Source: Squalus acanthias
Taxonomy: Eukaryota
NCBI GenBank assembly: GCA_030390025.1
Contig: CM059432.1
Coordinates: forward strand, 34,288,001-34,352,000
Length of the DNA: 64,000 nucleotides
Direction of reading: 5' to 3'
In this document: piece after piece, positions 1 to 56,446 of the stretch
Numbering within the stretch: the stretch's first letter is position 1
How the letters are laid out: every line of letters begins with the position of its first letter
The notes under the pieces: model-generated
Databases searched by the model: none
What the model was told of the DNA's origin: nothing
Seen by the model: only the letters and a program-made list of their open reading frames with translations
Translations under genes and position numbers: made by a program

Positions 1-221
1 CTCCTTTGATGTGGTTGACTCTAAACCATGTGCTACACTAACGTCAGTGACTGGGTGCAACATGAGTGTATTAGGTTTGATGAAAGACAAAGAGACCTGA
101 TGAATACTGTAGCTCAGTGAGGCTGTAATTCTTTACCGGATTGCCAGGAAATACACGACGACGAACCATAAAATCTGGACTATCGGTCGCAAAGGTGTAT
201 TAGTCACACATTTGAACCAAT

Positions 222-572
222 GAGTCAGAGCATGTGAGTTCAAATCCCATTGTGGCAGTTTGAGAATTTGATTTCAGATTTTAAAAGTCTGAAAATGAAA
301 TAAAAGTGACCATGAAGCTGTCGGATTGTCGTAAAAACCTTTCACTAATGTCCTTTAGGGAAGGACACCTGACTTCCTTACCCAGTCTGGCCGATATGTG
401 ACTCCAGTCCCACATCAAAGTGGTTGACTCTTAAATGCCCCCTGATGTTGGCCTAGCAAGCCACTCAGTTGTAAGAAGGAGGCCCACCGCCATCTTCTGA
501 GGGCAACTAGGGATGGGCAATAAATGCCAGCCTTTCCAGTGAGGCCCTCATCCCAAGAATGAATTAAAAAAA
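222..572 (+). mobile_element. Short SINE-like derivative of family A (B-box, central body, family A LINE 3' tail)
   Basis: GAGTTCAAATCC B-box; body 'ttcactaatgtcctttagggaagga...ggcctagcaagccactcagttgta' matches the family A 5' UTR and joins directly to the tail 'agggcaactagggatgggcaataaatgcc...gaattaaaaaaa'. Confidence 0.8.
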
Positions 573-632
573 TTGGGTTCCATATTAACCCCCTCACGAC
601 AGGTGGGAGATGGGTGGTGGGAGGGTTCAGAG

Positions 633-860: not shown

Positions 861-1057
861 ACGAGTGAAACATGCAAACGCTTCAACAGTAGTTTGCACT
901 TTCATCTCCCCCATCACCATCCGTCGCTCTCCTGGGCAATCGGCACATCACCCCTGTCTCTCTGCGGGAGAGCAACTTGGAGCAGATCAGTGATGTCTTG
1001 TTAGCCCATGGCTAAACTATCTGTCAAAGGGATGATGGTGGAAGGCAAAAAGGGGTG

Positions 1058-4000
1058 TTTTTTTTATTCGTTCATGGGATGTGGGCGTCGCTGGCAAGGC
1101 CAGCATTTTATTGCCAATCCCTAGTTGCTCTTGAGAAGGTGGTGGTGAGCGGCCTTCTTGAACCGCTGCAGTCCGTGTGGTGAAGGTACTCCCACAGTGC
1201 TGTTAGGGAGGCAGTTCCAGGATTTTGACCCAGCGACGATGAAGGAACGGCGATATATTTCCAAGTCAGAATGGTGTGTGACTTGGAGGGGAACTTGCAG
1301 GTGGTGGTGTTCCCATGCGCCTGCTGCCCTTGTCCTTCTAGGTGGTAGAGGTCACGGGTTTGGGAGGTACTGCCGAAGAAGCCTTGGTGAGTTGCTGCAG
1401 CGCATCTTATAGATGGTACACACTGCAGCCACGGTAAGCCGGTAGTGGAGGTTTAAGGTGGGGGATGGGATGCCAATCAAATGAGCTGCTTTGTCCAGGA
1501 TGGTATCAAGCTTCTTGAGTGTTGTTGGAGCTGCACTCATCCAGGTAAGTGGAGAGTATTCCATCACACTCCTGACTTGTGCCTTGTAGATGGTGGAAAG
1601 GCTTTGGGGAGTCAGGATGTGAGACACTCGCCACAGAATACCCATCCACTGACCTGCTCTTGTTGCCACAGTATTTATGTGGCTGGTCCAGTTAAGTTTC
1701 TGGTCAACAGTGACCCCCAGGATATTGATGGTGGGGGATTCGGTGATGGTAATGCCGTTGAATGTCAAGGGGTGGTGGTTAGATGCTCGCTTGTTGGAGA
1801 TAGTCATTGCCTGGGACTTGTGTGGCGTGAATGTTACCAGCCACTTATCAGCCCAAGTCTGAATGTTGTCAAGGTCTTGCTGCATGTGGGCATGGACTGC
1901 TTCATTATTTGAGGAGTTGCGAATGGAACTGAACATGGTGCAGTCATCAGCGAACATCCCCACTTCTGACTTTATGATGGAGGGAAGGTCATTGATGAAG
2001 CAGCTGAAGATGGTTGGGCCTAGGACACTGCCCTGAGGAACAGCTGCAGCGATGTCCTGGGGCTGTGATGATTGACCTCCAGCCACCACAACCATCTTCC
2101 TTTGTGCTAGGTATGACTCCAGCCAGTGGAGAGTTTTCCCTCTGATTCACATTGACTTCAGTTTTATTAGGGCTCCTTGATGTCATATTCGGTCAAATGC
2201 TGCCTTGATGTCAAGGGCAGTCACTCTCATCTCACCTCTGGAATTCAGCTCCTTTGTCCATGTTTGGACCAAGGCTGTAATGAGGTCTGGAGCCGAGTGG
2301 TCCTGGTGGAACCCAAACTGGGCATCAGTGAGCAGGTTATTGGTGAGTAAGTGCTGCTTGATAGCACTGTCGATGACACCTTCCATCACTTTGCTGATGA
2401 TTGAGAGCAGACTGATGGGATGCTGGTTGGTCGGATCGGATTTGTCCTGCTTTTTGTGGAAAGGACATACCTGGGCAGTTTTCCACATTGTCGGATAGAT
2501 GCCAGTGTTATTGTTGTACTGGAACAGCTTGGCTAGAGGCACAGCTAGTTCTGGAGCACAAATCTTCAGCATGACAGCCGGGATGTTGTCGGGGCCCATA
2601 GTCTTTGCTGTATCCAGTGCGCTCAGCCGTTTCTTGATATCACGTGGAGTGAATCGAATTGGCTGAAGACTGGCTTCTGTAGTGGTGGGTACCTGAGGAG
2701 GAGGCCGATATGGATCATCCACTCGGCACTTCTGGCTGAAGATGGTTGCAAACGCTTCAGCTTTGTCTTTTGCACTCACATGCTGGGCTCCACCATTATT
2801 GAGGATGGGGATATTCATGGAGCCTCCTCCTCCCGTTAGTAGTTTAATGGTCCACCACCATTCACGACTGGATGTAGCAGGACTGCAGAGCTTTGATCTG
2901 ATCCGTTGATTGTGGTATCACTTATAAACTCTTTCTATAGCATGCTGCTTCCACTTTTTAGCATGCATGTAGTTCTGTGTTGCAACTTCCCCAGGTTGGC
3001 ACCGCATTTTTAGGTACGCCTGGTGCTGCTCCTGGCATGCTCATCTACACTCCTCATTGAACCAGGGTTGGTCACCTGGCTTGATGGTAATGGTAGAGTG
3101 AGGGATATGCCGGGCCATGAGGTTACAGATTGTGGTGGAATACAATTCTGCTGCTGCTGATGGCCCACAGCGCCTCATGGATGCCCAGTTTTGAGTTGCT
3201 AGATCTGTTCTGAATCTATCCCATTTAGCACGGTGGTAGTGCCACACAACACGATGGAGGGTGTCCTCAGTGTGAAGACGAGATTTCGTCTTCACAATGA
3301 TTGTGCAGTGGTCACTGCTACCAATGCTGTCATGGATAGATAGATTGGTGAGGACAAGGTCAAGTAGGTTGTTCCCTCGTGTTGGTTCTCTCACCACCTG
3401 TCGCACCAGACTGGCAGCTATGTGCTCCAGGACTCGGCCAGTAGTGGTGCTACCGAGCCACTCTTGGTAATGGACATTGAAGTTGCCCACCCAGAGTACA
3501 TTCTGTGCCCTTGCTACTCTCAGTGCTTCTTCCAAATGGTATTCAACATGGAGGAGTACTGATTCATCAGCTGAGGGAGGGCAGTAGGTGGTAATCAGCA
3601 GGAGGTTTACTTGCCCATGCTTGATATGAGACTTCATGGGATCCGGAGTCAATGTTGAGCACTCCCAGGGCCACTCCTTCCCAACTGTCTACCACTGTGC
3701 CGCCACCCCTGACAGGACAGACCCAGGGATGGTGATGGAGGAGTTTGGGACATTGGCTGAAAGGTATGATTCTGTGAGTATGACTATGTCAGGCTGTTGC
3801 TTGACTAGTCTGTGGGATGGTTCTCCCAATTTTGGCAGAAGTCCCCAGATGTTGGTGAGGATGACTTTGCAGGGTTGACTGGGCTAGGTGTGCCATTGTC
3901 ATGTCTTTAGCCGGTGCCGATGCCGAGGTCAATGCCGGGTGGTCCGTCCGGTTTATTCTTATTGCTTTTCGTAGCTTTTTTTACAACTGAGCTTGCTAGG

Positions 4001-4281
4001 CCATTTCAGAGGGCAGTTAAGAGTCAACCACATTGCTGTGGGTCTGGAGCCACATATAGGCCAAACCAGGTAAAGATGACAGATTTCCTTCCCTAAAGGA
4101 CATTAGTGAACCAGATGGGTTTTTACAACAATCCGATAGTTACCATATTCCAGATTTATTTTATTAACTGAATTTAAATTCCCCAGCTGCCGTGGTGGGA
4201 TTTGAACTCATGTCTACTGGATCATTAGTCCAGGCCTTTGGATTACTAGTCCAGTAACATAACCACTATGCTACTGTTTCC
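1058..4281 (-). mobile_element. Family A LINE, full-length decayed copy 1 (tRNA-like head + APE endonuclease + RT, no ORF1; CR1-group)
   Basis: EN motifs TNIWGL, GNFNVH, LLDLVLTN, SDH; RT motifs ALDIKAAFD, PQGSVLGP, FADD; A8 tail at 1058-1065; splits a Penelope-derived fragment (1021-1057 / 4282-4480). Confidence 0.93.
4198..4273 (-). promoter_or_regulatory. Pol III type-2 internal promoter of family A copy 1
   Basis: A-box TAGCATAGTGG (4273-4263) fits TRGCNNARYGG; B-box GAGTTCAAATCC (4209-4198). Confidence 0.85.
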
Positions 4282-4765
4282 ATCATGGTAATGGGTGAAT
4301 AAAGAAAAAAAAGATGGGTCCAGAGGAGCTGTAAATGGCAATAGTAGAATCATTACCAGCGCCTGCTCTCCGAAAAAATTGGAGCAGTGGTTATGAACTG
4401 AAGTTGTTGAACTCACTGTTGAGGCCGGAAGGTTGTAAAGTGTCTAATTGAGCTTGCATTGAGCTTCATTGGAACAGTGTTTTCAGCCTCCTACACTGTT
4501 CCACTGTTTCTTTATTGTCCCATTATCACCCCCTTTTGCCTTGCACCATCATCCCTTTTGTCATTTAATCACGCCTGCCCTCCACCCTATCACAGACCTT
4601 CCTCTTGTTCTTTCCTCCCCCCACCACACCTTTTTTCCTTGGCTCTTTATTTGCTTATAAACTGTTAAATCTCTAACTTCTTCCAGTTCTGATGAAAGGT
4701 CATCTGTTTCTCTCTTCACAGATGCTGCCTGACCTGCTGAGTGTTTCCAGCATTTTCAGTTTTCA
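4282..4765. mobile_element. Penelope-like element remnant: inverted 3' ORF end (4282-4480, minus) and pseudo-LTR tail (4481-4765, plus)
   Basis: Minus strand encodes ...TLQPSGLNSEFNNF (end of a PLE ORF); plus part ends with 'ctgatgaaaggtca...agatgctgcctgacctgctgagt', also seen at 8560-8660. Confidence 0.65.
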
Positions 4766-5028
4766 TTCACCATTGCATCCGTGAAGTGGGCGCTTAAATA
4801 ATCAAGATGAAATTGCATCATGGGGGTCCGCATCATGCCCACTCACGCGCAGTGGAGACGCGAAACCCAGAAGTAAACTGAAAATGAGACATCCCTGTTG
4901 AAATCAGACATTCCCATGCACCCACGATCTTGCGTGTTTGTCGCCCGCTATTCCCCCGCCCCCCACTCCTGCAAATCCCTCCCCCCCACCCCCGCTCAGG
5001 TCCCGTCTCTACGTTACTATTGAGTCCA

Positions 5029-5322
5029 TTGGAGACACCAGCGGTGGCGGAGCATGAAACAGCGGCGACCTGATTGGAGACACCAGCGGCGGCGGAGCAT
5101 GAAACAGCGGCGACCTGATTGGAGACACCAGCGGCGGCGGAACATGAAACAGCGGCGACCTGATTGGAGACACCAGCGGCGGCGGAGCATGAAACAGCGC
5201 CGACCTGATTGGAGACACCAGCGGCGGTGGAGCATGAAACAGCGCCGACCTGATTGGAGACACCAGCGGCGGTGGAGCATGAAACAGCGGCGACCTGATT
5301 GGAGACACCAGCGGCGGTGGAA
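5029..5322 (+). repeat. 45-bp tandem repeat (about 6.5 copies) at the 5' end of a CR1 element
   Basis: Unit ttggagacaccagcggcggcggagcatgaaacagcggcgacctga, starts at 5029, 5074 etc. Confidence 0.95.
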
Positions 5323-5554
5323 CCCAAAAAATTAAGAGTGACATCACAGGACAGCAGGTAGGTGATTGGTTGGTGTGTATTAAGGTTTTTTTTTCTCTCT
5401 AACCTAGGACAGTGATTTAAACTAGGACCAGGAAACTATGACGTACTGTATTAAATTTATAGCTTAACTAGTTAACCTATTTAATATAACTATAAATAAT
5501 CATTGAATAAAGACTTTAACTAACTAAATAAATAAAATAAGGCGAGACTAAGAT

Positions 5555-6443
5555 ATGGCAGGGCAGATTGTGTGTCTGGACTGCAGTATGTGGGAGTTTG
5601 TGGACGGTGAGACTGTCCCGAGCAAACATGTCTGCAGGAGATGTCTCCATCTCGAATCGCTCCGGCTCAGAGTCATTGAGCTGGAGTGCGAGTTGGAGAC
5701 ACTCCAACACTTAAGGGAGGGGGAGGAATTTCTGGACAGTTTTATCCAGAATACAATCACACCCCAGAGGAAAGCACAGGTTCAGGAATGGGAGGGTGTG
5801 ACTGTTCGGGAGCCGGGTAGCGGGGATTTACGAGAGGTTGAGAAGGAGATCCCGCAGACACTGGTCCTGTCCAACAGGTACGATGTACTCGCTACCTGTG
5901 AGGACAAAGAGAAAGACTGCAGGGAGGACAGCCACAATGCAGACCAAGGCACCATGGCTCGGAAGGCTGTCCAAGGGGGAAGAGCAGAATAGAAATGTGG
6001 TAGTAATAGGAGACTCTATAATTAGGGGGATCGATAGCGTCCTCTGCAGCCAGGAACAAGAATCCCGCAGGGTGTGTTGCCTACCCGGTGCCAGGGTAAG
6101 GAATATCTCACGGCAGCTGGAGAGGAACTTGGAAAGGGAGGGGATAAATCCAGTTGTCGTGGTCCATGTTGGAACAAACAACATAAGTAGGACCTCAAAG
6201 GTAATAACGTCTGGATTATTGCCCGAGCCACGTGCAAATTGGCATAGAAGCAGACAGATCAGGAGAATTAACACATGGCTAAAGGGCTGGTGTGGGAAAG
6301 AGGGGTTCCTTTTCATGGGACACTCGCAACAGTTCTGGGACAGGAAAGAGCTGTCCCGATGGGACGGGCTCCACCTGAACCAGGATGTGACCTGTGTCCT
6401 AGTGAAAAGGGTAAATAGGGAGGTGGCAAAGGCTTTAAACTAG
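5555..6443 (+). pseudogene. CR1 ORF1 remnant: Cys zinc finger/coiled coil + SGNH esterase
   Basis: CLDC..CRRC followed by a leucine-rich helix; GDSI, GARV, GTNN, DGLHLN blocks; frameshift near 5980. Confidence 0.88.
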
Positions 6444-6626
6444 TAAGAAGCGGGGAGGGATCTACAAGAAATGTAAGCAGTCTAAATATAAACAAAACAG
6501 GAAAAGTGAGCATAGGAAAGAATAAAGTAAGGGAGGACATTGACATCAAGGGAGCAAATACAGTTATAGAACAGGAGTCTAAAAAGATGGTTGAACATAA
6601 AGTGAGAGGAAATCCTATTAAAGATG

Positions 6627-9369
6627 AGTTAAACTGTCTGTACAGCAATGCACACAGTGTCCGTAATAAAACAGGGGAGATGGAGGCAATCATGCGTTGG
6701 GAGGAACCAGACATAGTAAGGATTACTAAGATATGGCTACAGAAAAATTAGGACTGGGAATTAAACACTGCAGAGTATAACATATTTAGAAAAGATAGAG
6801 AGGGAAAAAGGGGGAGGTGGAGTAGCTGTACTTATTAGGGATAACATAATGGCAGTAGAAAAAAGGGACGTAGATATCAGCAAGACAAAAATAGAATCCA
6901 TATGGATGGAGATAAAAGATAATAAAGGATCAATCACACTAATAGGGGTAGTCTACAGACCACCTAATAGTGGAAGGGAGGTGGAGGAAGAAATATGCAG
7001 ACAAATTAGAGAAATTAGTAAAAAACATAGAATAATAATCATGGGGGATTTCAACTACACCGATATTAATTGGACAGAAGAGTTGGTAAAGGGGATAAGG
7101 GAATGGAGTTCCTACAATGTCTACAGGACTCCTTTCTAACCCAATATGTAAAAAGCCCAACAAGGGAGGATTCACTATTGGATCTAGTAATGGGGAATGA
7201 GCCAGAGCAGATAAGAGAAGTAAATTTAGGGGAGCATATAGGCAATAGTGACTGTAATATAATACGCTTTAAGATGATAATAGAGAAGGACATAAGTATG
7301 ACAAAAAACAGGTTAATAGATTGGAGAAAAGCTGATTTTGAGGGGCTGAGAATAGAACTTGGGAAGATAAAATGAGCAACAATATTGGCAAACAACGATG
7401 TAGAATGACAATGGGAAAAATTTAAAACGGTGTTCAACAGAGTGCAGAAAAAATATATTCCGCTAAAAGGAAAGAACAAACTAAACACTAATGAGACTCC
7501 ATGGATGAACAAAGACATAATTGAGGGTAAGGAAAGGGGCATACATTAAGTACATAGACAGCAGAGGAGTGCATGAAAAAGAAAAAATACGAAGGGATTA
7601 GGAGAGAAGTCAAAAAAACAATTAGGAAGGCAAAGAGGAACTATGAAATTAAATTATCAAGGAATAAAACAAAATAGTAAAATATTTTACAGGCACATCA
7701 ATAAAAAAAGGACGGTTGTGATGGGAATAGGGCTATTAAGGGATAGACAGGACAATACCACAGGTAACGATCGGGAGATGGCAGAAATATTAAATCATAA
7801 TTTTGCTTCTGTATTTACCAGGGAGATGACATTGATGATGAGATGAGATGAGTAATGTGATAATTGCATTTAAAGTTTTAAAAAGTGGATATATTAAATA
7901 AACTAATCAAACTCAGAGGATAAAAACCCCTAGTCCAGATAGATTGTATCCACGCATTTTAAAAGAATCTAGGGAAGGAATAGCAGAGGCATTACTACAC
8001 ATATTTAATAATTCATTAGAAAAAGGTGTAGTGCCAGAGGACTGGTGGATAGCTAATGTAATACCGATATTTAAGAAGGGGGATAGAACATGTCCAGGGA
8101 ATTATAGACCAGTCAGCTTAACATCGGTGGTAGGAAAATAATGGAATCCCTACTAAAGGAGAAAATAGAAGAACATCTAGAAACAAAAAGTATAATAATG
8201 AATAGTCAGCATGGATTTCAAAAGGGAAAATCTTGCTTGACCAACCTTATTGAATTTTTTGAAGCGGTAACAGAGAGAGTAGACAATGGTAATGCAGTAG
8301 ATGTAATTTATCTAGATTTTCAAAAGACCTTCGATAAGGTACCCCAAAATAGACTAATGAATAAGGTCAGAGAATGCAGAGTCAGGGGACAAGTAGCAGA
8401 ATGGATTGCTAGCTGGCTTCAAGACAGAAAGCAGAGAGTGGGAGTAAAGGTAAGCTATTCATAGTGGCAGAAGGTGGGTAGTGGTGTTCCACAAGGATCA
8501 GTGCTGGGACCACTGCTGTTCACAATTTACATGAACAATTTAGACAACTGGAAACTCTTTCCAGTTCTGACGAAAGGTCATCGACCTGAAACGTTAACTC
8601 TGTTTCTCTCTTCACAGATGCTGCCTGACCTGCTGAGTATCTCCAGCATTTTCTGTTTTTAAATGTGAAGTATTACAGTTTGGTAGGAAGAATAGGGAGG
8701 TCACTTATCACTTGGAGGGTGCGAGTCTAGGTGGGGCAGAGGAACAAAGGGATCTCGGAGTATAAATACACAAAACACTAAAAGTTGTGTCACAGGTTAG
8801 CAAGGCCATAAAAAAAGCAAACGAAGCACTAGGGTTTATTTCTAGAGGGATAGAATTGAAAAGTAGGGAAGTTATGCTAAACCTGTATTGAACCTTGGTT
8901 AGACCACACTTAAGAGTACTGCATACAGTTCTGGTCGCGGTATTATAAAAAGGATATAGAGGCACTGGAGAGGTTGCAGAGAAGATTTACAAGGACGATA
9001 CCAGGAATGCGAGGGTATACATATCAGGAAAAGATGAACAGGCTGGGTCTCTTTTCTATTGAAAAAAGAATGCTGAGGGGTGACCTAATAGAGGTCTTTA
9101 AAATTATGAGAGGTTTTGATAGAGTGGATACAGAGAGAATGTTTCCACTTGTGGGGAAGAGCATAACTAGAGGCCATCAATATAAGATAGTCACCAAGAA
9201 ATCCAATAGGGAATTCAGAAGAAACTTCTTTACCCAAAGAGTGGTGAGAATTTGGAACTCATTACCACAGGGAGAGGTTGAAGCAAATAGTATAGATGCA
9301 TTTAAGGGGAGGTTAGACAAGCATATGAGGGAGAAGGGATTAGAGGGTTACACTGATAGATTTAGATGA
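6627..9369 (+). pseudogene. CR1 ORF2 remnant (APE + RT), multiple stops and frameshifts
   Basis: CLYSNAHS, GDFNY, LLDLVMGN, NYRPVSLTS, QHGF, DFQKTFDKV, PQGSVLGP; FADD region lost at the 8546-8660 insertion. Confidence 0.9.
8546..8660 (+). mobile_element. Penelope-derived short insertion with a minimal hammerhead-like motif
   Basis: AGTT-CTGACGA-A-AGGTC-atc-GACCT-GAAACGTT-AACT at 8563-8599; 9-bp foldback AACTGGAAA/TTTCCAGTT at the 5' end. Confidence 0.7.
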
Positions 9370-9624
9370 GGAAAGACGGGAGGAGGCTCGAGTGGAGCAT
9401 AAATGCCGGCATGGACTGGTTGGGCCGAATGGCCTGTTTCTGTGCCGTATATCCTATGTAATCCATTGTTTTGCATTCAGGAGGTGATTTTCCTCCTCAC
9501 CACCTGAGCAGTGACCTGGCGTAACAGACTGCTCACCGTTGTAGAACCCATCCAATGTCCATTCGAATGGGATAATAATCGGGTAATCCACTCAGCCAGA
9601 TTCCCTTGCAGGCGGTGATGGTGA

Positions 9625-9920: not shown

Positions 9921-12900
9921 GGGAACGGTAGCATAGTGGTTATGTTATTGGACGAGTAATACCAGAAGCCTGAATAATCCGGTAGATGTGAGTTCAAATC
10001 CCACCACGGCAGCTATGGTATTTTAAATTAGTTAATTAAATAAATCTTGACTTGGATTGTTGTAAAAACCCACCTTTTGGTTTCACTAACGTCCTTTAGG
10101 GTAGGAAATCTGCTGTCTTTACCTGGTCTGGCCTATATGTGACAGCAATGTGGTTGATTCTTAACTGCCCTCTAAAATGGCCTAGCAAGCCACTGAGTTG
10201 TACACAACCACTACGAAAAACAATAATAAGAATAAAACCGGACATACCTCGGCACCGGCTTCGGATATGACAACGGCAGACCCAGGCCAGTCGACCCTGC
10301 AAAGTCCTCCACACCAACATCTGGGGACTTGTGCCAAAATTGGGAGAGCTGACTCACAGACTAGTCAAGCAACAGCCTGACATAGTCATACTCACAGAAT
10401 CTAACCTTCAGCCAATGTCCCAAACTCCTCCATCACCATCCCTGGGTATGTCCTGTCCCACCGGCAGGACCGACCAACCAGAGGTGGTGGCACAATGGTA
10501 TACAGTCGGAAAGGAGTGGCCCTGAGAGTCCTTAACATTGACTCTGGACCCCATGAAGTCTCATGGGTTCAGGTCAAGCATGGGCAAGGAAACCTCCTAC
10601 TGATTACCACCTACCGCCCTCCCTCAGCTGATGAATCAGTACTCCTCCATGTTGAACACCACTTGGAAAAAGCACCGAGGGAAGCAAGGGCACAGAATTT
10701 ACTCTGGGTGGGGGACTTCAATGTCCATCACCAAGAGTGGCTCGGTAGCACCACTACTGACCGAGCTGGCCGAGTCCTGAAGGATATAGCTGCCAGACTG
10801 GGCCTGTGGCAGGTGGTGAGAGAACCAGCACGAGGGGAAAAACCTACTTGACCTCGTCCTCACCAATCTACCTGTCACAGATGCATCTGTCCCTGACAGC
10901 ATTGGTAGCAGTGACCACCGCACAATCCTTGTGGAGATGAAATCCCGCCTTCAGACTGAGGACACCCTCCATCGTGTTGTGTGGCACTACCACCGTGCTA
11001 AATGGGATAGATTCAGAACAGATCTAGGCACTGTGGGCCATCAGCAGCAGCAGAATTATATTCCACCACAATCTGTGACCTCATGGCCCGGCATATTCCT
11101 CACTCTACCATTACCATCAAGCCAGGGGACCAACCCTGGTTCAATGAGGAGTGCAGAAGAGCATACCAGGAGCAGCATCAGGCATATCTACAAATGAGGT
11201 GCCAACCTGGGGAAGCTGCAACACAGGACTACATGCATGCTAAACAGCGGAAGCAGCATGCTATAGACAGAGCTAAGCAAGCCCACAATCAACGGATCAG
11301 ATCAAAGCTCTGCAGTCCTGCCACATCCAGTCGTGAATGGTGGTGGACAATTAAACAACTAATGGGAGAAGGAGGCTCCATGAATATCCCCATCCTGAAT
11401 GATGACAGAGCCCAGCATGTGAGTGCAAAAGACAAGGCTGAAGTGTTTGCAACCATCTTCAGCCAGAAGTGCCGAGTGGATGATCCATATCGACCTCCTC
11501 CTGAGGTCCTCACCATCACAGAAGCCAGTGTTCAGCCAATTCGATTCACTCCACGTGATATCAAGAAACGGCTGAGCGCACTGGATACAGCAAAGGCTAC
11601 GGGCCCCGACAACATCCCGGCTATCGTGCTGAAGGCTTATGCTCCAGAACTAGCTGTGCCTCTAGCCAAGCTGTTCCAGTACAGCTACAACACTGGCATC
11701 TACCTGACATAACTGCCCAGGTATGTCCTGTCCAAAAAAAGCTGGACAAATCCGATCTAGCCAATTACCGCCCCATCAGTCTACTCTCAATCATCAGTAA
11801 AGTGATGGAAGGTGTCATTGACAGTGCTATCAAGCGACACTTACTCACCAATAACCTGCTCACCGATGCCCTGTTTGGGTTCCGCCAGGACCACTCGGCT
11901 CCAGACCTCATTACAGCCGTGGTCCAAACATGGACAAAAGAGTTGAATTCCAGAGGTGAGGTGAGAGTGACTGCCCTTGACATCAAGGCAGCATTTGACC
12001 GAGTGTGGCATCAAGGAGCCCTAGTAAAACTGAAGTCAATGGGAATCGGGGGGAAAGTCTCCACTGGCTGCAGTCATACCGAGCACAAAGGAAGATGGTT
12101 GCAGTTGTTGGAGGTCAATCATCACAGCCCCAGGACATTGCTGCAGGAGTTCATCAGGGCAGTGTCCTAGGCCCAACCATCTTCAGCTGCTTCATCAATG
12201 ACCTTCCCTCCATCATAAGGTCAGAAGTGGGGATGTTCGCTGATGATTGCACAGTGTTCAGTTCCATTCGCAACTCCTCAGATAATGAAGCAGTCCATGC
12301 CCGAATGCAGCAAGACCTGGATGACATTCAGGCTTGGGCTGATAACTGGCAGGTAACATTCATGCCACAAAAGTGCCAGGCAATGACTATCTCCAACAAG
12401 TAAGAGTCTAACCACCACCCCTTGACATTCAACGGCATTACCATCGCTGAGTCCCCCACCATCAACATCCTTGGGGTCACCATTGACCAAAAACTTAACT
12501 GGACCAGCCACATAAATACTGTGTCGACAAGAGCAGGTCAGAGGCTGGGTATTCTGCGGCGAGTGTCTCACCTCCTGATTCCACAAAGCCTTTCCACCAT
12601 CTACAAGGTACAAGTAAGGAGTGTGATGGAATACTCTCCACTTGCCTGGATGAGTGCAGCTCCAACAACACTCAAGAAGCTCAACACCATCCAGGACAAA
12701 GCAGCCCGCTTGATTGGCACCCCATTCACCACCTTAAACATTCACTCCCTGCACCACCAGGGTACCGTGGCTGCAGTGTGTACCATCTACAAGATGCACT
12801 GCAGCAACTTGCCAAGGCTTCTTCGGCAGCACCTCCCAAGCCCGCGACCTCAACCACCTAGAAGGACAAGGGCAGCAGGCGCACGGGAAGACCATCACCT

Positions 12901-13137
12901 GCAAGTTCCCCTCCAAGTTACACACCATCCTGACATGGAAATATATCACCGTTCCTTCATCGCCGCTGGGTCAAAATCCTGGAACTCCCTCCCTAACAGC
13001 ACTGTGGGAGTACCTTCACTACAAGGACTGCAGCGGTTTAAGAAGGCAGCTCACCACCACCTTCTCAAGGGCAATTAGGGATGGGCAATAAATGCTGGCC
13101 TTACCAGCAACGCCCACATCCCAGGAACAAGTAAAAA
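9921..13137 (+). mobile_element. Family A LINE, full-length decayed copy 2
   Basis: Same head, body, EN (GDFNVH, SDH), RT (QGSVLGP, FADD) and tail as copy 1; same length, about 3.2 kb. Confidence 0.93.
9929..10001 (+). promoter_or_regulatory. Pol III A-box/B-box of family A copy 2
   Basis: TAGCATAGTGG 9929-9939; GAGTTCAAATCC 9990-10001. Confidence 0.85.
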
Positions 13138-13907
13138 TATCAACATCCCAAAAACAAAGGAAAATTACAACACACCCTCAGTGATGCGGGTTGTGCATTG
13201 GTTTCCTACTCTCAGTGTCAGCCACTCCTCAAAGAATGCCTGGCCTTTCCAGCATACAAAGGTTTTTGATTTATTGTCTTCCATTGCACATTTTATTAAC
13301 AGCGCATTTTTAACGATTATCCTGTCAACAGGGATTCCTGACAGAGGAATCTCGACCGTCTCTCTGTCGAGCATCACTTTATTTAGCAGCGTTGAATGCA
13401 GGGAGCCCGTTCGGACCTGATCCATCCATCAACAATCCAGTTTCTCGGGATTAAGCTTTAATGAGATGCCAATACCAAAGAAAGACTATACAATTAAACT
13501 AGGTATTTGACATTTTTCTGAAGTGATACACGATTGCAAGCTTCCATCACAAGGATATTAAATGCAAATTAGATACGTAATGTGCATTGCAACACCTTGT
13601 GAGATGTACTAAAATCTGCATTGATACAGTTGTAGGTTAGATATTTGGGGGGGATGGTGAGAGGCGTCATTTGAAGGTTCTAGGCTTTGTGTATCCTTTT
13701 AAGAGATGAGAGCTTTGCGTACACCAGCCTCATGATCATAAGTGGATAATTGGACTGTTTGAAATGCTACGCAGATCAGCCGATTGTCACTGAGGCACTC
13801 AGCCCTTGGGGGATAACAAAACTTAACTAAACAGATCAAAGCCTATTTGATCAGTCATAGCTTCGGCTGCAGCTCCTACTTGAGAGCCTTAACCCCACAC
13901 CTACCAA

Positions 13908-15066: not shown

Positions 15067-16572
15067 AACCTCTCTGGGTACGTCGAGGGCATCCTGAAAC
15101 CCATCGTACAGGGAACCCCCAGCTTCTGTCGCAACACTACAGACTCCTTGCAGAAACTCAGCACCCATGGACCAGTTGAACCAGGAACACTCCTCGCCAC
15201 GATGGACGTATCGGCACTCTACACCAATATCCCCCACGATGACGGCATCGCTGCGACAGCCTCAGTACTCAACACCAACAACAGACAATCTCCAGACGCC
15301 ATCCTACAACTCATCCGCTTCATCCTTGACCACAATGTCTTCACCTTCGACAACCAGTTTTTTACCCAAACACACGGAACAGCCATGGGGACCAAATTCG
15401 CACCCCAATACGCCAACATCTTCATGCACAAGTTCAAGCAAGACTTCTTCGCTGCACAGGACCTCCAACCAACGCTGTACACCAGATACATCGACGACAT
15501 CTTCTTCCTTTGGACCCACGGTGAAGGATCACTGAAAGGACTACACGATAACATCAACAGGTTCCATCCCACCATCAAACTCACCATGGACTACTCTTCA
15601 GAATCGGTTTCATTCCTGGACACACGAATCTCCATCAAAGACGGACACCTCAGCACTTCACTCTACCGCAAGCCCACGGACAACCGCACGATGCTCCACT
15701 TCTCCAGCTTCCACCCTAACCACGTTAAAGAAGCCATCCCCTATGGACAAGCCCTGCGAATACACAGGATCTGCTCAGACGAGGAGGAACGCGATGGACA
15801 CCTACGGATGCTGAAAGATGCCCTCGTAAGAACGGGATATGACGCTCGACTCATTGATCGACAGTTCCGACGGGCCACAGCGAAAAACCACATAGACCTC
15901 CTCAGAAGGCGAACACGGGACACAACCAACAGAGTACCCTACGTCGTCCAGTACTTCCCCGGAGTGGAGAAACTACGCCATGTTCTTCGCAGCCTTCAAT
16001 ATGTCATCGATGACGACGAACACCTTGCTAAGGCCATCCCCACGCCTCCACTACTCGCCTTCAAGCAGCCGCCTAACCTCAAAAGTACCATCGTTCGCAG
16101 CAAATTACCCAGCTGTCAGGAGAACAGCGACCACGACACCACACAACCCTGCCACGGCAACCTCTGCAAGACATGCCGGATCATCAACACAGATACCATC
16201 ATCACACGTGAGGACACTACCCACCAGGTACATGGTACATACTCATGTGACTCGGCCAACGTTGTCTACCTCATACGTTGCAGGAAAGGATGCCCCGGAG
16301 CATGGTACATCGGCGAGACAATGCAGACACTGAGACAACATATGAACGGACACCGCGCAACAATCGCCAGGCAGGATTGTTACCTCCCAGTCGGGGAACA
16401 CTTCAGCAGTCAAGGACATTCAGCCTCGGATCTGCGGGTAAGCGTTCTCCAAGGCGGCCTTCGAGACACATGACAACGCAAAATCATCGAGCAGAAACTG
16501 ATAGCCAAGTTCCGCACCCATGAGGACGGCCTCAATAGGGATCTCGGGTTCATGTCACGCAACAGAACGTGA
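15067..16572 (+). pseudogene. Penelope RT-endonuclease ORF, 5'-truncated, one premature TGA at 16471-16473
   Basis: Frame is open from 15067 and continues QRKIIEQKLIAKFRTHEDGLNRD after the stop. Confidence 0.88.
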
Positions 16573-24500: not shown

Positions 24501-25022
24501 TTAGGAAGGATGTGAAGGCCTTAGAGAGGGTGCAGAAAAGATTTACAAGAATGATTCCATGGATGACTGACTTCAGTTATGTGGATAGACTAGAAAAGCT
24601 GGGATTATTCTCCTTAGAGCAGAGAAGATTGAGAGGAGATTTGATATAGGTGTTCAAAATCATGAGGGGTCTGGACAGAGTAGATAGAGAGAAACTGTTC
24701 CCATTGGCAGAAGGGTTGAGAACCAGAGGACACAGATTTAAGGTGATTGGCAAAAGAACCAAAGGCGACATAACAAAAAACTTTTTAACGCAGCGAGTGG
24801 CTAGGATCTGGAATGCACTGCCTGAAAGGGTGGTGGAGGCAGACTCATACACGGCTTTCAAAAGTGAGTTGAATAAGTACCTGAAAGAAAAATATTTGCA
24901 GGGTAATGGGGAAAGGGCAGGGGAGGAGGACTAGCTGAGGTGCTCTTGCAGAGAGCCAGCACGGGCTCGACGGGCTGAATGGCCTGCTTCCTGTGCTGTA
25001 ACCATTCAATGAATCTATGATC
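21575..25022 (+). mobile_element. 5'-truncated CR1 LINE interrupted by a solo LTR
   Basis: SPGPDGMHPRML, HGF, QGSVLGP, FADE, YSVQFWAP; tail attcaatgaatctatga. Confidence 0.92.
22122..23607 (+). mobile_element. 1,486-bp solo LTR
   Basis: TGTAA...TTCA termini; 4-bp TSD AAAT (22118-22121, 23608-23611); TATAAAA 22974, AATAAA 23257; CR1 sequence rejoins across it. Confidence 0.82.
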
Positions 25023-26864: not shown

Positions 26865-27097
26865 AAGAAAGGACTTGCATTATATAGCACCTTTCACAAC
26901 TTCAGGACATCCCAAAGCGCTTCACAGCCAATGATGTACTGTTGTAATGTAGGAAGCGTGGCAGCCAGTTTGCGCAGAGCAAGGTCCCACAAATAGCAAT
27001 GAGATAAATGCCCAGATAATCTGTTTTTAGCGATGGTAGTCGAGGGACACTGGGAGAATTCCCCTGCGTTTTCTCATAGTCCCATGGGATCTTGTAC
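26865..27097 (-). mobile_element. DeuSINE partial copy
   Basis: Reverse complement of the tail/core of the 18869 copy. Confidence 0.75.
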
Positions 27098-27512
27098 ATA
27101 GTGTTGTGGTTATGTTACTGGACTAGTAATTCAGAGGATGTGAGTTCAAATACCACCATGACAGATTGATCATTTCAATTCAGTTTTTAAAAATCTAGAA
27201 CTAAAAAGCTGACATCAGTAAAAGTGACCATGAAACTGCCGGTCACTTTAGTCATAAAAACCCAACTGGTTTACGAATGTACTTTAAGAAAGGAAACCTG
27301 CTGTCCTTACCCAGTCTGGCCTATATGTGACTCCAATCCACACTAACATAGTTGACTCTTAACTGCCCTGTGAAATGGCCTAGCAAGCCACACAGTTGTA
27401 TCAAAACTGCTACTATACTGGAACTTCATACCAAGCAGCACTGTGGGAGCACCTTCACCATATGGATTGCAGCGGTTAGAAGGTCCACTACCATGTTCTC
27501 AAGGCAACTAGG
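27098..27512 (+). mobile_element. SINE-like derivative of family A with a longer 3' segment
   Basis: gtggttatgttactggactagtaa head, B-box, body, then cagcactgtgggagcaccttcacc...aaggcaactaggga from the LINE 3' end. Confidence 0.8.
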
Positions 27513-27844
27513 GAGAATCCTACTTATAAGCCTACTTAAACTAACAATATTATGGACATACAAACTAGGAGCCTAAAAGGTTCACTGGGCCCAAAATGTC
27601 CATCACTTTTAAATAGATCAGACACACCCAGGTCAGGTAACAACAGAGGGCAGACTGGCCCTATCAGGAGATTTCCTGAGTGCCCCCGTAAATGGTTTCA
27701 TAGCACTGTATTATTGTCCCCCTCCCTTTTTCCAAGAGAATCCCCCATTATACAATTACTTTTCTGTTGTTTGATTTTTTTTTAACCCAAGGTAGGGGAT
27801 GTCGATGCTGGCTTGTGGAATTTTTCTACCTTCTGCACCCAGTG

Positions 27845-33535: not shown

Positions 33536-35220
33536 TTTTTTTTTAATTCGTTCCTGGGATGTGGGTATCGCTGGCAAGGCCAGCATTTATTGCCCATTCC
33601 TAGTTGCCCTTGAGAAGGTGGTGGTGAAATGCCTTCTTAAACTGTTGCAGTCCGTGTGGTGAAGGTACTCCCACAGTACTAATAGGGAGGAAGTTCCAGG
33701 ATTTTGACCCAGTGACGATGAAGGAACGGCAATATACTTCCAAGTTAGGATGGTGTGTAACTTGGAAGAGAATTTGGAGGTGGTGGTGCTCCCATGCGCC
33801 TGCTGCCCTTGTCCTTCTAGGTGGTAGAAGTCATGGGTGTGGGAGGTGCTCCCGGAGAAGCCTTGGCAAGTTGCTGCAGTGCATCTTGAAGATGGTACAC
33901 ACTGCAGCCACGGTACGCTGATGGTGGAGGGAGTGAATGTTTAAGGTGGTGGATGGGGTGCCAATCAAGCGGGCTGCTTTGTCCTGGATGGTGTTGAGCT
34001 TCTTGAGTGTTGTTGGAGCTGCACTCATCCAGGCAAATGGAGAGTATTCCATCACACTCCTGACCCACTGGAATTCAGCTCTTTCGTCCATGTTTGGACC
34101 AAGGCTGTAATGAGGTCTGGAGCCGAGTGGTCCTGGCGGAACCCAAATTGGGCATCAGTGAGCATGTTATTAGTGAGTAAGTGCTGCTTGATAGCACTGT
34201 CGATGACACCTTCCATCACTTTGCTGATGATTGAGTGTAGACTGATGGTGCGGTAATTTTCCGGATTGGATTTGTCCTGCTTTTTGTGGACAAGACATAC
34301 CTAGGCAGTTTTCCACATTGTTGGGTATGCCAGTGTTGTAGCTGTACTGGAACAGCTTGGCTAGAGGCACAGCTAGTTCTGGAGCACAAGTCTTCAGCAC
34401 GATATCCGGGATGTTGTCGGGGTCCACAGCCTTTGCTGTATCCAGTGCGCTCAGCCATTTCTTGATATCACGTGGAGTGAATCGAATTGGCTGAAAACTG
34501 GCTTCTGTGAAGGTGGGGACCTCAGAAGGAGGCCGATATGGAAAATCTACTCGGCACTTTTGGCTGAAGATGGTTGCAAACGCTTCAGCCTTGTCTTTTG
34601 CACTCACGTGCTGGGCTCCACCATCATTGAGGATGGGGATATTCATGGAGCCTCCTCCTCCCGTTAGTTGTTTAATTGTCCACCACCATTCATGACTGGT
34701 TGTGGCAGGACTGCAGAGCTTTGATCTGATCTATTGATTGTGGGATCGCTTATCCCTGTCTATAGCATGCTGCTTCCGCTTTTTAGCATGCATGTAGTCC
34801 TGTGTTGCAGCTTCCCCAGGTTGGCACCGCATTTTTAGATATGCCTGGTGCTGCTCCTGGCATGCTCTTCTACACTCCTTATTGAACCAGGGTTGGTCCT
34901 CTGGCTTGGTGGTAATGGTAGAGTGAGAGATATGCCAGGCCATGAGGTTACAGATTGTGGTGAATACAATTCTGCTGCTGCTGTTGGCCCACAGCGCCTC
35001 ATGGATGCCCAATTTTGAGCTGCTAGATCTGTTCTGAATCTATCCCAATTTGCACGGTGGTAGTGCCACACAACACAATGGAGGGTGTCCTCAGTGTGAA
35101 GACGGGACTTCGTCTTCACAATGACTGTGCGGTGGTCACTGCTACCAATGCTGTCATGGACAGATGCATTTGCAACAGGTAAATTGGTGTGAAAGAGGTC
35201 AAGTAGGTTTTTCCCTCGTG
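33536..35220 (-). mobile_element. Family A LINE, 5'-truncated with an internal deletion of the RT core
   Basis: SDH to 3' tail; junction near 34065 skips from ELNS to VRSVMEY. Confidence 0.9.
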
Positions 35221-36022: not shown

Positions 36023-38158
36023 GAGTGACTGCCCTTGACACCAAGGCAGCATTTGACCGAGTGTGGCATCAAGGAGCCCTAATAATATTGAAGTCAATGG
36101 GAATCAGGGGGAAAAGTCTCCACTGGCTGGAGTCATACCTAGCACAAAGGAAGATGGTTGTGGTTGTTAGAGGTCAATCATCTCAGCCCCAGGACATTGC
36201 TGCAGGTGTCCCTCAGGGCAGTGTCCTGGGCCCAACCATCTTCTGCTGCTTCATCAATGACCTACCCTCCAACTTTGAGGTGCCTGCTGTACATGGTCCA
36301 TGTCTCTTAGGCATACAGCAGGGCGGGTATCACTGCTGCTCTGTAGACCATGAGATTAGTGCTGGGTTTGAGGTACTGGTCTTCAAACACTCTCTTCCTC
36401 AGGCGACCGAAGGTTGCACTGGCACACTGAAGGCAGTGTTGGACTTCGTCGTCGACGTTTGCCCTTGTTGACAGTAGGCTCCCGAGGTATGGAAAGTGGT
36501 CCACGTTGTCCAAGGCCTTGTCGTGGATTTGATAATCGGGGGGCAGTACTGTGTGGCAGGGGCAGGTTGGTAGAGGACCTTTGTCTTACGGATGTTTAGT
36601 GTAAGGCCCATGCTCTCAGAGACATGGACCATGTACAGCAGGCACCTCAAAGCACTGGAGAGGTACCACCAACGCTGCCTCCGCAAGATCCTGCAAATCC
36701 ATTGGCAGGATAGACGCACCAACGTCAGTGTTCTTGCTCAGGCCAACATCCCCAGCATCGAAGCTTTGACCACGCTCGATCAGCTCCGATGGATGGGTCA
36801 CATTGTCCGCATGCCTGATACGAGACTCCCAAAACAAGCACTCTACTCGGAGCTCCGGCATGGCAAGAGAGCCCCAGGTGGGCAGAGGAAATGCTTCAAG
36901 GACACCCTCAAAGCCTCCTTGAAAAAGTGTAACATCCCCACCGACACCTGGGAATCCCTGGCCCAAGACCGCACAAAGTGGAGGAGAAGCATCCGGGAAG
37001 GCGCCGAACACCTCGAGTCTCTTCGCCGGGAGCAAGCAGAAGCCAAGCGCAGGCAGCGCAAGGAGCGCACGTCAACCCAAGCACCCCACCCACCTGCTCC
37101 TTCAACCACCGTCTGCCCCACCTGTGACAGAGACTGTAGGTCCCGCATTGGACTCATCAGTCACCTGCAAACTCATTTTTAATGTGGAAGCAAGTCATCC
37201 TCGGTTCCGAGGGACTGTCTAAGAAGAAGAAGAAGACCCTCCATCATAAGGTCAGAAGTGGGGATGTTCGGTGATGATTGCACAGTGTTCAGTTCCATTC
37301 GCAAATCCTCAGATAATGAAGCAGTGCAGCAAGACCTGGACGACATTCAGGCTTGGGCTGATAAGTGGCAAGTACAATCTCGCCACACCAGTGCCAGGCA
37401 TTGACTATCTCCAACAAGCGAGAGTTTAACCACCACCCCTTGACATTCAATGGCATTACCATCGCCGAATCCCCCAACATCAACATCCTGGGGTCACCAT
37501 TGACCAGAAACTTAACTGGACCAGCCACATAAATACTGTGGCAACAAGAGCAGGTCAGAGGCTAGGTATTCTGCGGTGAGTGTCTCACCTCCTGACTCCC
37601 CAAAGCCTTTCTACCATCTACAAGGCACAAGTAAGGAGTGTGATGGAATACTCTCCAATTGCCTCAATGAGTGCAGCTCCAACAACACTCAAGAAGCTCG
37701 ATACCATACAGGGCAAAGCAGCCTGCTTGATTGGCACCCCATCCACCACCTTAAACATTCACTCCCTCCACCACCGGCGTACCGTGGCTGCAGTGTGTAC
37801 CATCTACAAGATGCACTGCAGCAACTCGCCAATGCTTCTTCGGCAGCACCTCCCAAACCCACGACCTCTTCCACCTAGAAGGACAAGGGCAGCAGGCGCA
37901 TGGGAACACAACCACCTGCAAATTCCCTTTCAAGTCACACACCATCCTGACTTGGAAATATATCACCGTTCCTTCATCGTCGCTGGGTCAAAATCCTGGA
38001 ACTCCCTCCCTAACAGCACTGTGGGAGTACCTTCACCACACGACTGCAGCGGTTCAAGGTGGCGGCTCACCACCACCTTCTCAAGGGCAATTAGGGATTG
38101 GCAATAAATGCTGGCCTTGTCAGCAACGCCCACACCCCCAGAACGAATAATAAAAAAA
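36023..38158 (+). mobile_element. Family A LINE, 5'-truncated, interrupted by an RTE element
   Basis: TALDTKAAFDRVWH, PQGSVLGP; resumes at 37236 and runs to the A-rich tail. Confidence 0.9.
36272..37235 (+). mobile_element. RTE-clade LINE fragment with an inverted 5' segment
   Basis: FPYLGS, QLRWMGHIVRMPDTRLPKQALYSEL, C-terminal CxxC..H; (AAG)n tail; 8-bp TSD accctcca (36264-36271, 37236-37243). Confidence 0.9.
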
Positions 38159-42800: not shown

Positions 42801-44046
42801 CCTAAAGTGTAAAGACCAGTGTGTTTTTTCTCTCTCTCTTCCCTATCTTCCCTTTCCCTCCCTCCCTCTCTATTCCTGTCTCCATTAGGTCATCCTATGT
42901 TGTATCCTCATACTTGAGAGGACAGTCTTGAGAGATTCTGTTTTAGATATTGCTAAAGACAAGAAAGACTAAATGAAGAAGTGTGGCCTGGAAACTTAGA
43001 ATGCAAAAGAGTTCACTAATACGTGCCCTCCGCGCTGGGCTTCTGCACTTTTCATCAGCCTTTATCCACCTTTAGGCACTTTCTGTTTACCTGTTCTGCA
43101 ACTAGGGTGGTACACAGCATCACTTAAAGCTGCTATATATCAAAATTATGCCACAATCCCCTTCAATACATGAAAAACTAAATAGCAGACTTGCCAAGTT
43201 TCATTCACTAATGAAAAACAATCACTCACTTTATTGACAAATGTGATGCGTCACTGTTAAAAATAAACACAGCACCTGCATGCTCAGCTGGATTTGTGAT
43301 CTTTGCCGTTCCTGCCGATCAGCGAAGTCCCACAAACAGCAATGAGAGAATGACCAGATAATCTGTTTTTTAATGATGTTGGTTGAGGGGGTTAACTATA
43401 GGCCAGAACACTGGGGAGATCTCCCCTGCTCTTCTCCAAATAGTGCCATAGGACCTATAGGGCTCGATTTCCCAAGCCCCGAGGAGGCGGGATTGGAGGC
43501 GTGTGAGGTGGTAAAATCAGAGAAATTGGGGCGGGTGGCACTCCCGCCTCCGTGCCCTTTTGCCAGGAGGCGGGAGGATGTGCAGCTTCGGGTCCCGTCT
43601 CCTGGAGGCGGGAAAGGCTTTTAATCCTTTTAACTGCCTGTTAACAGGTAGTTAACAGGCAGAAAAAAGGATTAGTGCCATTTTACCTTCATAGGTGAAG
43701 GCTTCCCGACCTCGGAGAACCCCGTCGGGTTGGAGGAGACAGTGGAGGAGGTCTGCGGTGGTCGGAGGCACCTGGAAGTAAGGGGTAGAGGTGAGTGATG
43801 GGTGCAAGTGTGGAGTGGTAAGTATGTAAGGTGAGTGATAAGTTTAAAAAAGTGTTCACTTACCTTTTTTTACTTCTGTAGCCTATAGCCGTGCTGGATC
43901 GACCGTGTCAATTTCAGGTAATGGCTGATGGACCCTCCGATCCATCAGACATCTGAAATTTACTATTTCACAATGTTTTTTCAGTCCTCACCACAAAAAC
44001 GAATCAAACTCAAGAGAATGTCAGTGTTTGACAGCTTAACAGCATA

Positions 44047-56112: not shown

Positions 56113-56446
56113 GTTTTTTTTATTCATTCATGGGATGTGGGGGTCGCTGGCAAGGCCACCATTTATTGCCCATCCCTAGTTGCCCTTGAGAAGGTGGTGG
56201 TGAGCTGCCTTCTTGAACCGCTGCAGTCCGTGTGGTGAAGGTGCTCCCATAGTGCTGTTAGGGAGGGAGTTCCAGGATTTTGACCCAGCGACGATGAAGG
56301 ATCAGCGATATATTTCCAAGTCAGGATGGTGTGTGACTTGGAGGGGAACTTGCAGGTGGTGGCGTTCCCATGTGCCTGCTGCCCTTGCCTTTCTAGGTGG
56401 TAGAGGTCGCGGGTTTGGCGGGTGCTGTTGAAGAAATTTGGCAAGT
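56113..56446 (-). mobile_element. Family A LINE 3' fragment inside a probable MITE (about 55690-56650)
   Basis: Matches about 1058-1390. Confidence 0.88.

Follow-up and report, generated by a model that had tools for sequence, protein, structure and literature searches.

A LINE family with a SINE-type head in Squalus acanthias: a family-wide absence of T4 runs from the sense strand, marginally beyond composition

Long interspersed elements (LINEs) are held to be elements of RNA polymerase II (Pol II), and short interspersed elements (SINEs) elements of RNA polymerase III (Pol III). In the portions of PMC10886601 that bear on this division, retrotransposons without long terminal repeats (non-LTR elements) are stated to use Pol II, and the length of SINEs is thought to be limited by the processivity of Pol III. 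Among the closest described systems are the L2-clade partners of Deu-type SINEs, such as L2-2_CM with SacSINE1-CM (PMC5499810). Family A, the subject of this study, resembles them in having an apurinic-type endonuclease (APE) and a reverse transcriptase (RT) in a single open reading frame (ORF), copies that are mostly 5'-truncated, and a hairpin 3' tail in common with a SINE made of a tRNA head and a conserved body. As a non-LTR retrotransposon it measures about 3.2 kb, and two full-length decayed copies of it lie within the 64-kb stretch of Squalus acanthias DNA analysed here (64,000 nucleotides (nt) of contig CM059432.1, positions 34,288,001 to 34,352,000; hereafter the window). A LINE with a tRNA-type head, as found in family A, was not found described in the literature searched, which included portions of PMC5786205, PMC5499810 and PMC10886601 and lay outside Repbase and Dfam.

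The initial annotation of the window had read the lack of runs of four or more T (T4+) on the sense strand of family A as the mark of a coding sequence selected for Pol III read-through, and hence as independent support for a Pol III promoter in the head. Of the predictions that the Pol III idea makes for the sequence, a T4-free strand is the cheapest; it holds family-wide, and it is nearly predicted by composition alone. The explanation we lean towards is that coding poor in T, TT and phenylalanine (Phe) in one master sequence left the strand T4-free as a by-product, a state that permits Pol III read-through without being evidence for it.

Family A and its T4-free sense strand

The copies and fragments of family A in the window are the following, where q coordinates are positions along copy 2, whose ORF spans q346-3155.

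1062..4281, minus strand: copy 1, with head, SINE-type body, single ORF and tail; full-length, decayed, 3220 nt
4195..4281, minus strand: putatively tRNA-derived head of copy 1, with A-box-like TAGCATAGTGG from element position 9 and B-box-like AGTTCAAATCC from 73
3980..4135, minus strand: SINE-type body of copy 1, in common with SINE copies (LINE 5' ends aligned with 14 SINE copies)
1121..3902, minus strand: ORF remnant of copy 1, APE and RT, with frameshifts and stops (Pfam Exo_endo_phos_2 and RVT_1 on pieces)
1076..1121, minus strand: 3' tail hairpin of copy 1 with AATAAA, then ...CATGAACGAATAAAA (fold -19.5 kcal/mol, z -2.1)
9921..13137, plus strand: copy 2, full-length, decayed, 3217 nt
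9921..10010, plus strand: putatively tRNA-derived head of copy 2, with a sub-threshold Rfam tRNA match at 9928-10005
10021..10024, plus strand: T4 run of copy 2 only; 6 of 10 copies read TTT here
10054..10214, plus strand: SINE-type body of copy 2 (similarity to SINE copies)
10075..10078, plus strand: T4 run of copy 2 only, inserted with respect to copy 1 (alignment of copies)
10267..13078, plus strand: ORF remnant of copy 2, APE and RT, without T4+ (ORF pieces, tblastn, T4+ count)
13078..13122, plus strand: 3' tail hairpin of copy 2, with AATAAA at 13087 (fold -21.8 kcal/mol, z -2.15)
33540..35220, minus strand: 5'-truncated fragment, q909-3217 (similarity to copy 2)
36023..38153, plus strand: fragments q2045-2292 and q2286-3217, separated by an insert (similarity to copy 2)
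56117..56446, minus strand: 3' fragment, q2887-3217 (similarity to copy 2)

Aligned end to end, copies 1 and 2 are 86.6% identical. The head of about 90 nt, GG[G/A]AAC.GTAGCATAGTGGTTATG...GAGTTCAAATCCCACC, is followed by a conserved body of about 160 nt that also occurs in a SINE family of this genome (q134-294 has further window matches at 323-473 and 27255-27413) and that we take to be Deu-like, a name we assume rather than draw from the sequence. The single ORF has about 970 codons, and frameshifts and stops disrupt it in all the copies seen. Its APE is recognized by Exo_endo_phos_2 at 31.0 bits (cut-off 27.4) on 3044-3688 of the minus strand, upstream of the RT, and its RT by RVT_1 at 57.9 and 35.7 bits on pieces of copy 1; with the ORF pieces of L002, a genomic copy, tblastn covers copy 1 from 3898 to 1124 at 79.8% identity. 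The element ends in ...CATGAACGAATAAAA plus a short A-run. Taken together, family A is a single-ORF LINE (endonuclease plus RT) of the L2/CR1 kind whose 5' terminus is a SINE head and body.

Other frames are open as well. An antisense ORF of 151 amino acids (aa) is open in both window copies (1457-1909, plus strand; 12281-12733, minus strand), as are alternative-frame sense ORFs of 117-120 aa (12499-12858 and 12738-13088, plus strand), and the 120-aa frame is open in many genomic copies too. The persistence of these frames is probably due to a T-poor sense strand with few stop codons, and their coding potential is putative.

On the plus strand of the window, AAAA is absent from 1052 to 4304 (3253 nt), so that the interval 1066-4281 given for copy 1 by the initial annotation stands and is slightly extended, and TTTT is absent from 10079 to 13262 (3184 nt), which takes in the reported 10079-13137 of copy 2. 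Both intervals are the longest of their kind on either strand of the window, where the runners-up measure 2140 and 1791 nt and such runs are separated by median gaps of 117 and 85 nt. The sense strand of copy 1 has a T content of 0.213, no T4+ run and 16 runs of four or more A (A4+); that of copy 2 has a T content of 0.209, 15 A4+ runs and two T4+ runs, at 10021-10024 and 10075-10078. The further details of the initial annotation agree with our counts: the two T4 runs lie in the 5' untranslated region (UTR), are absent from copy 1 and are private to copy 2 (each is seen in one of ten covering copies), A4+ runs are common on the same strand, the neighbouring CR1 element (5029-9463) is rich in T4+ with 14 runs on its sense strand, and AATAAA occurs at 13087; the 5' UTR of copy 2 contains it twice more, at 10039 and 10231.

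For the family as a whole we used 61 aligned copies, namely copies 1 and 2 together with L002-L030 and L031-L060, which amount to 142,962 nt in all and to 136,028 nt inside the ORF span, and counted the sharing of sites across copies, which is distinct from a consensus sequence. The ORF span holds ten T4+ runs in this set, no two at the same coordinate, and 51 of the 61 copies are T4-free there; five of the ten runs extend shared TTT sites by one base (q1525, q1953/1954 and q2670/2671). Over 3.2 kb, the sites found in at least half of the covering copies comprise seven TTT, one TTCTT (q2899) and no T4+ run, and none of TVTTT, TTVTTT, TTTVTT and TTTVT is held by that proportion of copies. The master sequence was thus T4-free and nearly free of weak T-rich terminators, whose in vitro efficiencies are about 50% for TCT3, 32% for T2AT2 and 15% for T2CT2, with isolated T3 almost inactive (Orioli et al., PMC3141230, portions bearing on weak terminators). 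The absence of T4+ is thus confirmed as real and family-wide, as the initial annotation had supposed from two copies.

How many independent observations this amounts to depends on the history of the family. In the 3.7-Gb genome we scored the best 40 of 37,600 first-look candidates found with copy 2, and 150 of 418,424 candidates of an RVT_1 search. Every one of the 30 best-scoring RVT_1 loci belongs to family A (142-145 bits, 89.5-92.9% DNA identity to copy 2). Of the 40 long matches found with copy 2, 39 stop within q3071-3217; their starts range from q1 to q1695, and some move further 5' on local BLAST of the loci; most copies are therefore 5'-truncated with one common 3' end. Judged by these identities, the copies make up one burst, about 90% identical, and the T4-free state is then one independent observation that all copies would have inherited from the master. 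Loci that appeared to be deeper subfamilies at 72-82% protein identity (L033, L036, L040, L053, L054, L045 and L057) turned out to have about 90% DNA identity, with frameshifts explaining the gap, and no independent family A lineages were found among the scored loci. Nor was a close headless relative found, the 30 best RVT_1 loci all belonging to the same family of about 90% identity; L002, L016 and L027, which start at q203-222, are plain 5' truncations into unrelated flank. L061 and L062, with ORFs of 971 and 920 aa, were rejected as intact family A, since they are q5-2593 copies fused in frame to another element. Both (G000:C3445:266500-272900 and G000:C53:449000-455500) carry the same truncated family A copy plus another RT-bearing element, the fusion is embedded in a satellite whose reading is a repeated peptide, and the two loci appear to be copies of a single larger repeat.

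Family A is common to related species, as follows from contigs of four runs (X1, X2, X9 and X10) labelled as four different organisms, in which all 30 element bins are covered at a likeness of at least 85%. Contig depth climbs toward the 3' end of the element in the four runs; these contigs are of a guessed kind and show neither starts nor polymerase. The window stretch was found in no run recorded as RNA, which tells neither way on transcription.

Composition, synonymous shuffles and control LINEs

The number of T4+ runs expected in family A depends strongly on the null model. With independent bases, 5.25 runs are expected in copy 1, and the probability of finding none, P(0), is about 0.005. 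Dinucleotide shuffles give 1.33-1.84 runs on the ORF pieces (P(0) 0.12-0.26) and 1.64-2.94 on whole elements (P(0) 0.041-0.165), and the second-order expectation, TTT squared over TT, is 0.68-1.81. Synonymous-codon shuffles (3000 on the open ORF pieces, with protein and codon usage kept, of decayed copies and not of the master sequence) give 2.22 runs for L002 (967 codons; P(0) 0.063), 1.97 for copy 1 (723 codons; P(0) 0.092) and 2.71 for copy 2 (887 codons; P(0) 0.040), with A4+, C4+ and G4+ runs matching expectation in the same shuffles. The low T4+ expectation results from a T-poor ORF, few Phe codons and an under-representation of TT. Specifically, the T content of the ORF is 0.193 and is low at each of the three codon positions (0.137, 0.242 and 0.202), Phe accounts for 17 of 967 codons (1.8%; 4 TTT and 13 TTC), and rho(TT) is 0.71-0.83 in family A against 0.93-0.98 for rho(AA). 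Composition alone would then predict about 1-2.7 T4+ runs per 3 kb, and zero would be unremarkable for one master; it is unremarkable if the counts of TT and TTT are taken as given. The absence of T4+ is only marginally beyond composition, by an amount that depends on the null chosen.

The synonymous shuffles, which the initial annotation had proposed as a check, give zero T4+ in only 4-9% of cases and so do not often give zero. Several observations weigh against composition as the whole explanation. In L002 there are 73 runs of two or more T (T2+) where 82.3 are expected (P 0.002) and 8 of three or more (T3+) where 13.7 are expected (P 0.022); in copy 2 the figures are 78 against 82.0 (P 0.15) and 6 against 13.7 (P 0.002), and in copy 1 they are 63 against 69.4 (P 0.025) and 8 against 11.5 (P 0.11). 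The depletion of T-runs thus exceeds what protein sequence and codon usage give. C-to-T decay of the shuffled copies may also have shifted the expectation. The small number of shared TTT and TTCTT sites over 3.2 kb points the same way, as do the reading of the related SINE at the site of its T-run, described below, and five of six control ORF sets. These controls, LINE ORFs of this same genome compared with their own synonymous expectation, are few and all distant from family A, with at most 35% protein identity:

L063 ORF2, 1306 aa, intact LINE, T content 0.208: 9 T4+ observed, 6.5 expected
L063 ORF1, 730 aa: 5 observed, 2.7 expected
5802-9366, CR1 in the window: 9 observed, 8.4 expected
15067-16470: 1 observed, 1.0 expected
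23789-24646: 3 observed, 3.4 expected
44940-46846, second CR1 copy, 5'-truncated: 2 observed, 6.8 expected, P=0.007

The first five sets show no T4+ deficit. The sixth has a stronger deficit than family A, with T3+ at expectation, in a copy that has lost its 5' end and may or may not have had a head.

What the shuffles reveal is a real, modest avoidance of T-clustering at synonymous sites and codon junctions, which is graded and has no step at four. A pure filter by Pol III termination would predict a step at T4 and a loss of specific weak motifs, rather than a deficit of TT. This shape bears on two accounts that invoke selection. In the first, which remains doubtful in our view, the head is a type-2 promoter, the whole 3.2 kb is a Pol III template, and T-runs were purged from the master: it accommodates T2+, T3+ and T4+ all lying under the synonymous expectation, the five undepleted control sets, and ancestral sites limited to one weak terminator motif and seven TTT, but it has to face marginal P values from a single lineage, a depletion without a step at T4, a deficit of TT although TT is no terminator and isolated T3 is almost inactive in vitro (PMC3141230, same portions), and a stronger T4 deficit in the 5'-truncated CR1 copy, which may have been headless.

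U-runs can also be costly to an RNA in other ways, through AUUUA-type instability, cryptic polypyrimidine tracts or 3' splice sites, Pol II pausing on rU:dA, or RT slippage. The second account, accordingly, is that U-runs were selected against for such RNA-level reasons in a Pol II LINE that uses a captured SINE 5' part as its 5' UTR or promoter. It would explain why T2+, T3+ and T4+ are depleted alike, not from four up, and why the bias is strand-specific, as in the rho values above; the AATAAA in the conserved tail hairpin and the short A-runs at which copies end would also fit Pol II. We nevertheless think it unlikely, because A4+, C4+ and G4+ runs are at expectation, so that homopolymer slippage in general is not avoided, and because five of the six other LINE ORF sets, presumably transcribed by Pol II, are without a T4+ deficit.

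Three of the control elements deserve a brief description. The CR1-like LINE at 5029-9463 (plus strand) has an upstream ORF that resembles a GDSL lipase below threshold (27.6 bits, cut-off 32.9), and a tandem repeat at its 5' side (4836-5435, minus strand) reads as a repeated peptide in minus-strand frames. The second CR1-like copy spans 44040-46880 on the minus strand, is 5'-truncated and has a (TTCTATGC)-type 3' end. L063 (G000:C379:49500-57500) is a LINE of high GC content whose ORFs, of 730 and 1306 aa, are intact; among the scored RVT_1 rows, at least nine have an open frame of exactly 1306 aa and one more has 1307 aa, which suggests a young, possibly active family.

The 5' end of family A and the related SINE

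The strongest point for Pol III is the uniform start at the position of tRNA +1. Seven copies (copy 1, copy 2, L003, L025, L009, L026 and L033+L064) share an identical start nucleotide after unrelated flanks, in the common start GG(G/A)AAC..., 8 nt 5' of the A-box-like motif; two more, L061 and L062, start at q5. The head is present in every copy that extends past q65, and no alternative 5' end was seen among the copies. From the uniform 5' end it follows that the template RNA started at the point where a tRNA-type Pol III unit or a SINE starts. We take the motifs in the head to follow the A- and B-box consensus, and their spacing, from positions 9 and 73, is presumably workable for Pol III. 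The Rfam tRNA model matches the copy 2 head over model positions 7-64 with 17.6 bits (E 0.51), below its gathering score of 29; this match, though without a tRNA-like fold, takes in the D-arm with the A box and the T-arm with the B box. The same start is also what would result if a captured SINE 5' part were simply inherited and Pol II started internally.

The uniform start at tRNA +1 also suits a third possibility, in which the head is an RNA-processing signal at which RNase P cuts the LINE RNA free from read-through transcripts, much as 5' ribozymes free R2 and RTE element RNA, and T-runs are irrelevant. This is highly improbable. The Rfam match lacks the acceptor stem, no tRNA was called in the window by ARAGORN or by Rfam at gathering score, and shuffled sequences fold as well as the heads do (z -1.1 and +0.5), with no stable tRNA-like fold; we reject an RNase P-type role on account of the missing acceptor stem together with the lack of a stable fold. 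As a separate observation, the body gives a full-length, sub-threshold match to Rfam TCL6_2, a conserved region of a long non-coding RNA (10110-10237, plus strand; 14.5 bits, E 3.7), which may be chance or may reflect descent of the TCL6_2 region from a related ancient SINE.

SINEs are the element type with accepted Pol III transcription, and the SINE that holds head and body in common with family A allows the two to be compared directly. Its window copies, both on the plus strand and delimited by alignment with the LINE, are:

205..575, plus strand: decayed head, T4 run, body, LINE-type tail
27085..27515, plus strand: head, T5 run, body, LINE-type tail

We examined 14 copies, these two and 12 genomic ones (L067-L078) from a search in which the best 40 of 9,207 first-look candidates were scored. 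A T4 or T5 run follows the B box by about 25 nt in nine of the 14, where the SINE reads CAGTTTTTAAAAATCTGG and the LINE reads CAGTTAATAAAATAAATCTGG. Compared with the SINE, the head of family A has a duplication of about 21 nt between the boxes, no T4/T5 run, and lacks about 30 nt of the SINE body. The T-run after the head that the initial annotation ascribed to the short derivatives is thus found in these nine copies and is absent from the short form L069, which has the LINE-type head, with the duplication of about 21 nt and without the T-run, and a longer LINE tail. L069 fits an internal-deletion derivative of the LINE, and contigs from the four runs join 10164-10203 to 13028-13083, as short forms would. 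A further tRNA-like SINE head lies at 47170-47360 on the minus strand (GGCTCAGTGATAGCAC...GGTCGTGGGTTAAAG, then a T6 run), beside the tail hairpin of family A in reverse complement, where the plus strand matches q3165-3203 at 47174-47212.

The T-run of the SINE cuts both ways. That the LINE-type head is without it, in the LINE and in L069, is what purging for read-through would predict, yet the SINE tolerates it. In human U6 cassettes T4 gives 75% and T5 95% termination (PMC5725217, in the portion on such cassettes), and since the SINE thrives with a T4/T5 run, one or two T4 runs in the LINE would not be obviously fatal. Transcripts of Pol III are moreover uncapped, and Pol III is regarded in portions of PMC10886601 as too poorly processive for autonomous elements.

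Two claims of the initial annotation can now be assessed; the refuting conditions that it set itself do not overturn its reading. That the coding sequence was selected for Pol III read-through is upheld as far as no T4+ site is shared and few synonymous shuffles reach zero, but the selection argument is weak because only about two runs are missing, the family is a single burst, and the T2+ and T3+ deficit is graded. That the T4-free strand independently supports the promoter is not borne out, given the lack of a step at four, the deficit in a control LINE and the tolerance of T4 by the SINE. The A- and B-box-like motifs are present, and the zero shared T4+ in 61 copies is also to be expected in 4-26% of composition-matched shuffles. 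The T4-free strand is compatible with Pol III and mildly favours read-through, and we infer that composition, not Pol III, is its cause. A broader scheme, in which the SINE head is the LINE promoter, the LINE is copied from a 3.2-kb Pol III transcript of a master purged of T-runs, and Deu-type SINEs are internal-deletion derivatives of the LINE, seems to us improbable. If it were true, conserved-body SINEs would arise by internal deletion of a headed LINE, and the SINE body would have its origin in a LINE 5' UTR.

Family A among described elements

If Pol III drives family A, this would be a new mode of LINE expression. Whichever polymerase is used, a high-copy LINE that starts with a SINE head at tRNA +1 blurs the division between LINEs and SINEs. 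SacSINE1/LmeSINE1-type DeuSINEs, which consist of a tRNA head, a Deu domain and an L2 tail, have an A-/B-box-like head, a conserved body and a LINE tail, as do the 14 short copies examined here; family A differs from them in being 3.2 kb long and coding. It falls outside the definition of a SINE as short (about 100-700 bp) and non-coding, given this length and an ORF remnant of about 970 codons.

Two other groups share single features with family A. The TRIMp3 elements Cassandra, Helenus and Ajax are, according to portions of PMC10886601, retrotransposons whose Pol III promoters stem from small RNAs, with a tRNA- or 5S-derived promoter-like sequence at the expected start, but they are short (311-1263 bp), non-autonomous LTR elements, whereas family A, at 3.2 kb, is non-LTR and of the autonomous type; the autonomous partners of TRIMp3 elements are argued there to need Pol II owing to the processivity of Pol III. 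The T+ SINEs B2, Dip and Ves, as described in portions of PMC8466645, likewise have a head of Pol III type and carry AATAAA close to their 3' end. They end in a terminator T-run, while family A has none inside the element and carries its AATAAA in the tail hairpin.

The placement of family A with L2 is made from its likeness to the elements described in portions of PMC5499810, rather than from an RT phylogeny, and is to be read at that strength. As described there, L2-2_CM shares only its 3' tail with the SINE; family A also has the SINE head and body at its 5' end, in every copy that reaches so far.

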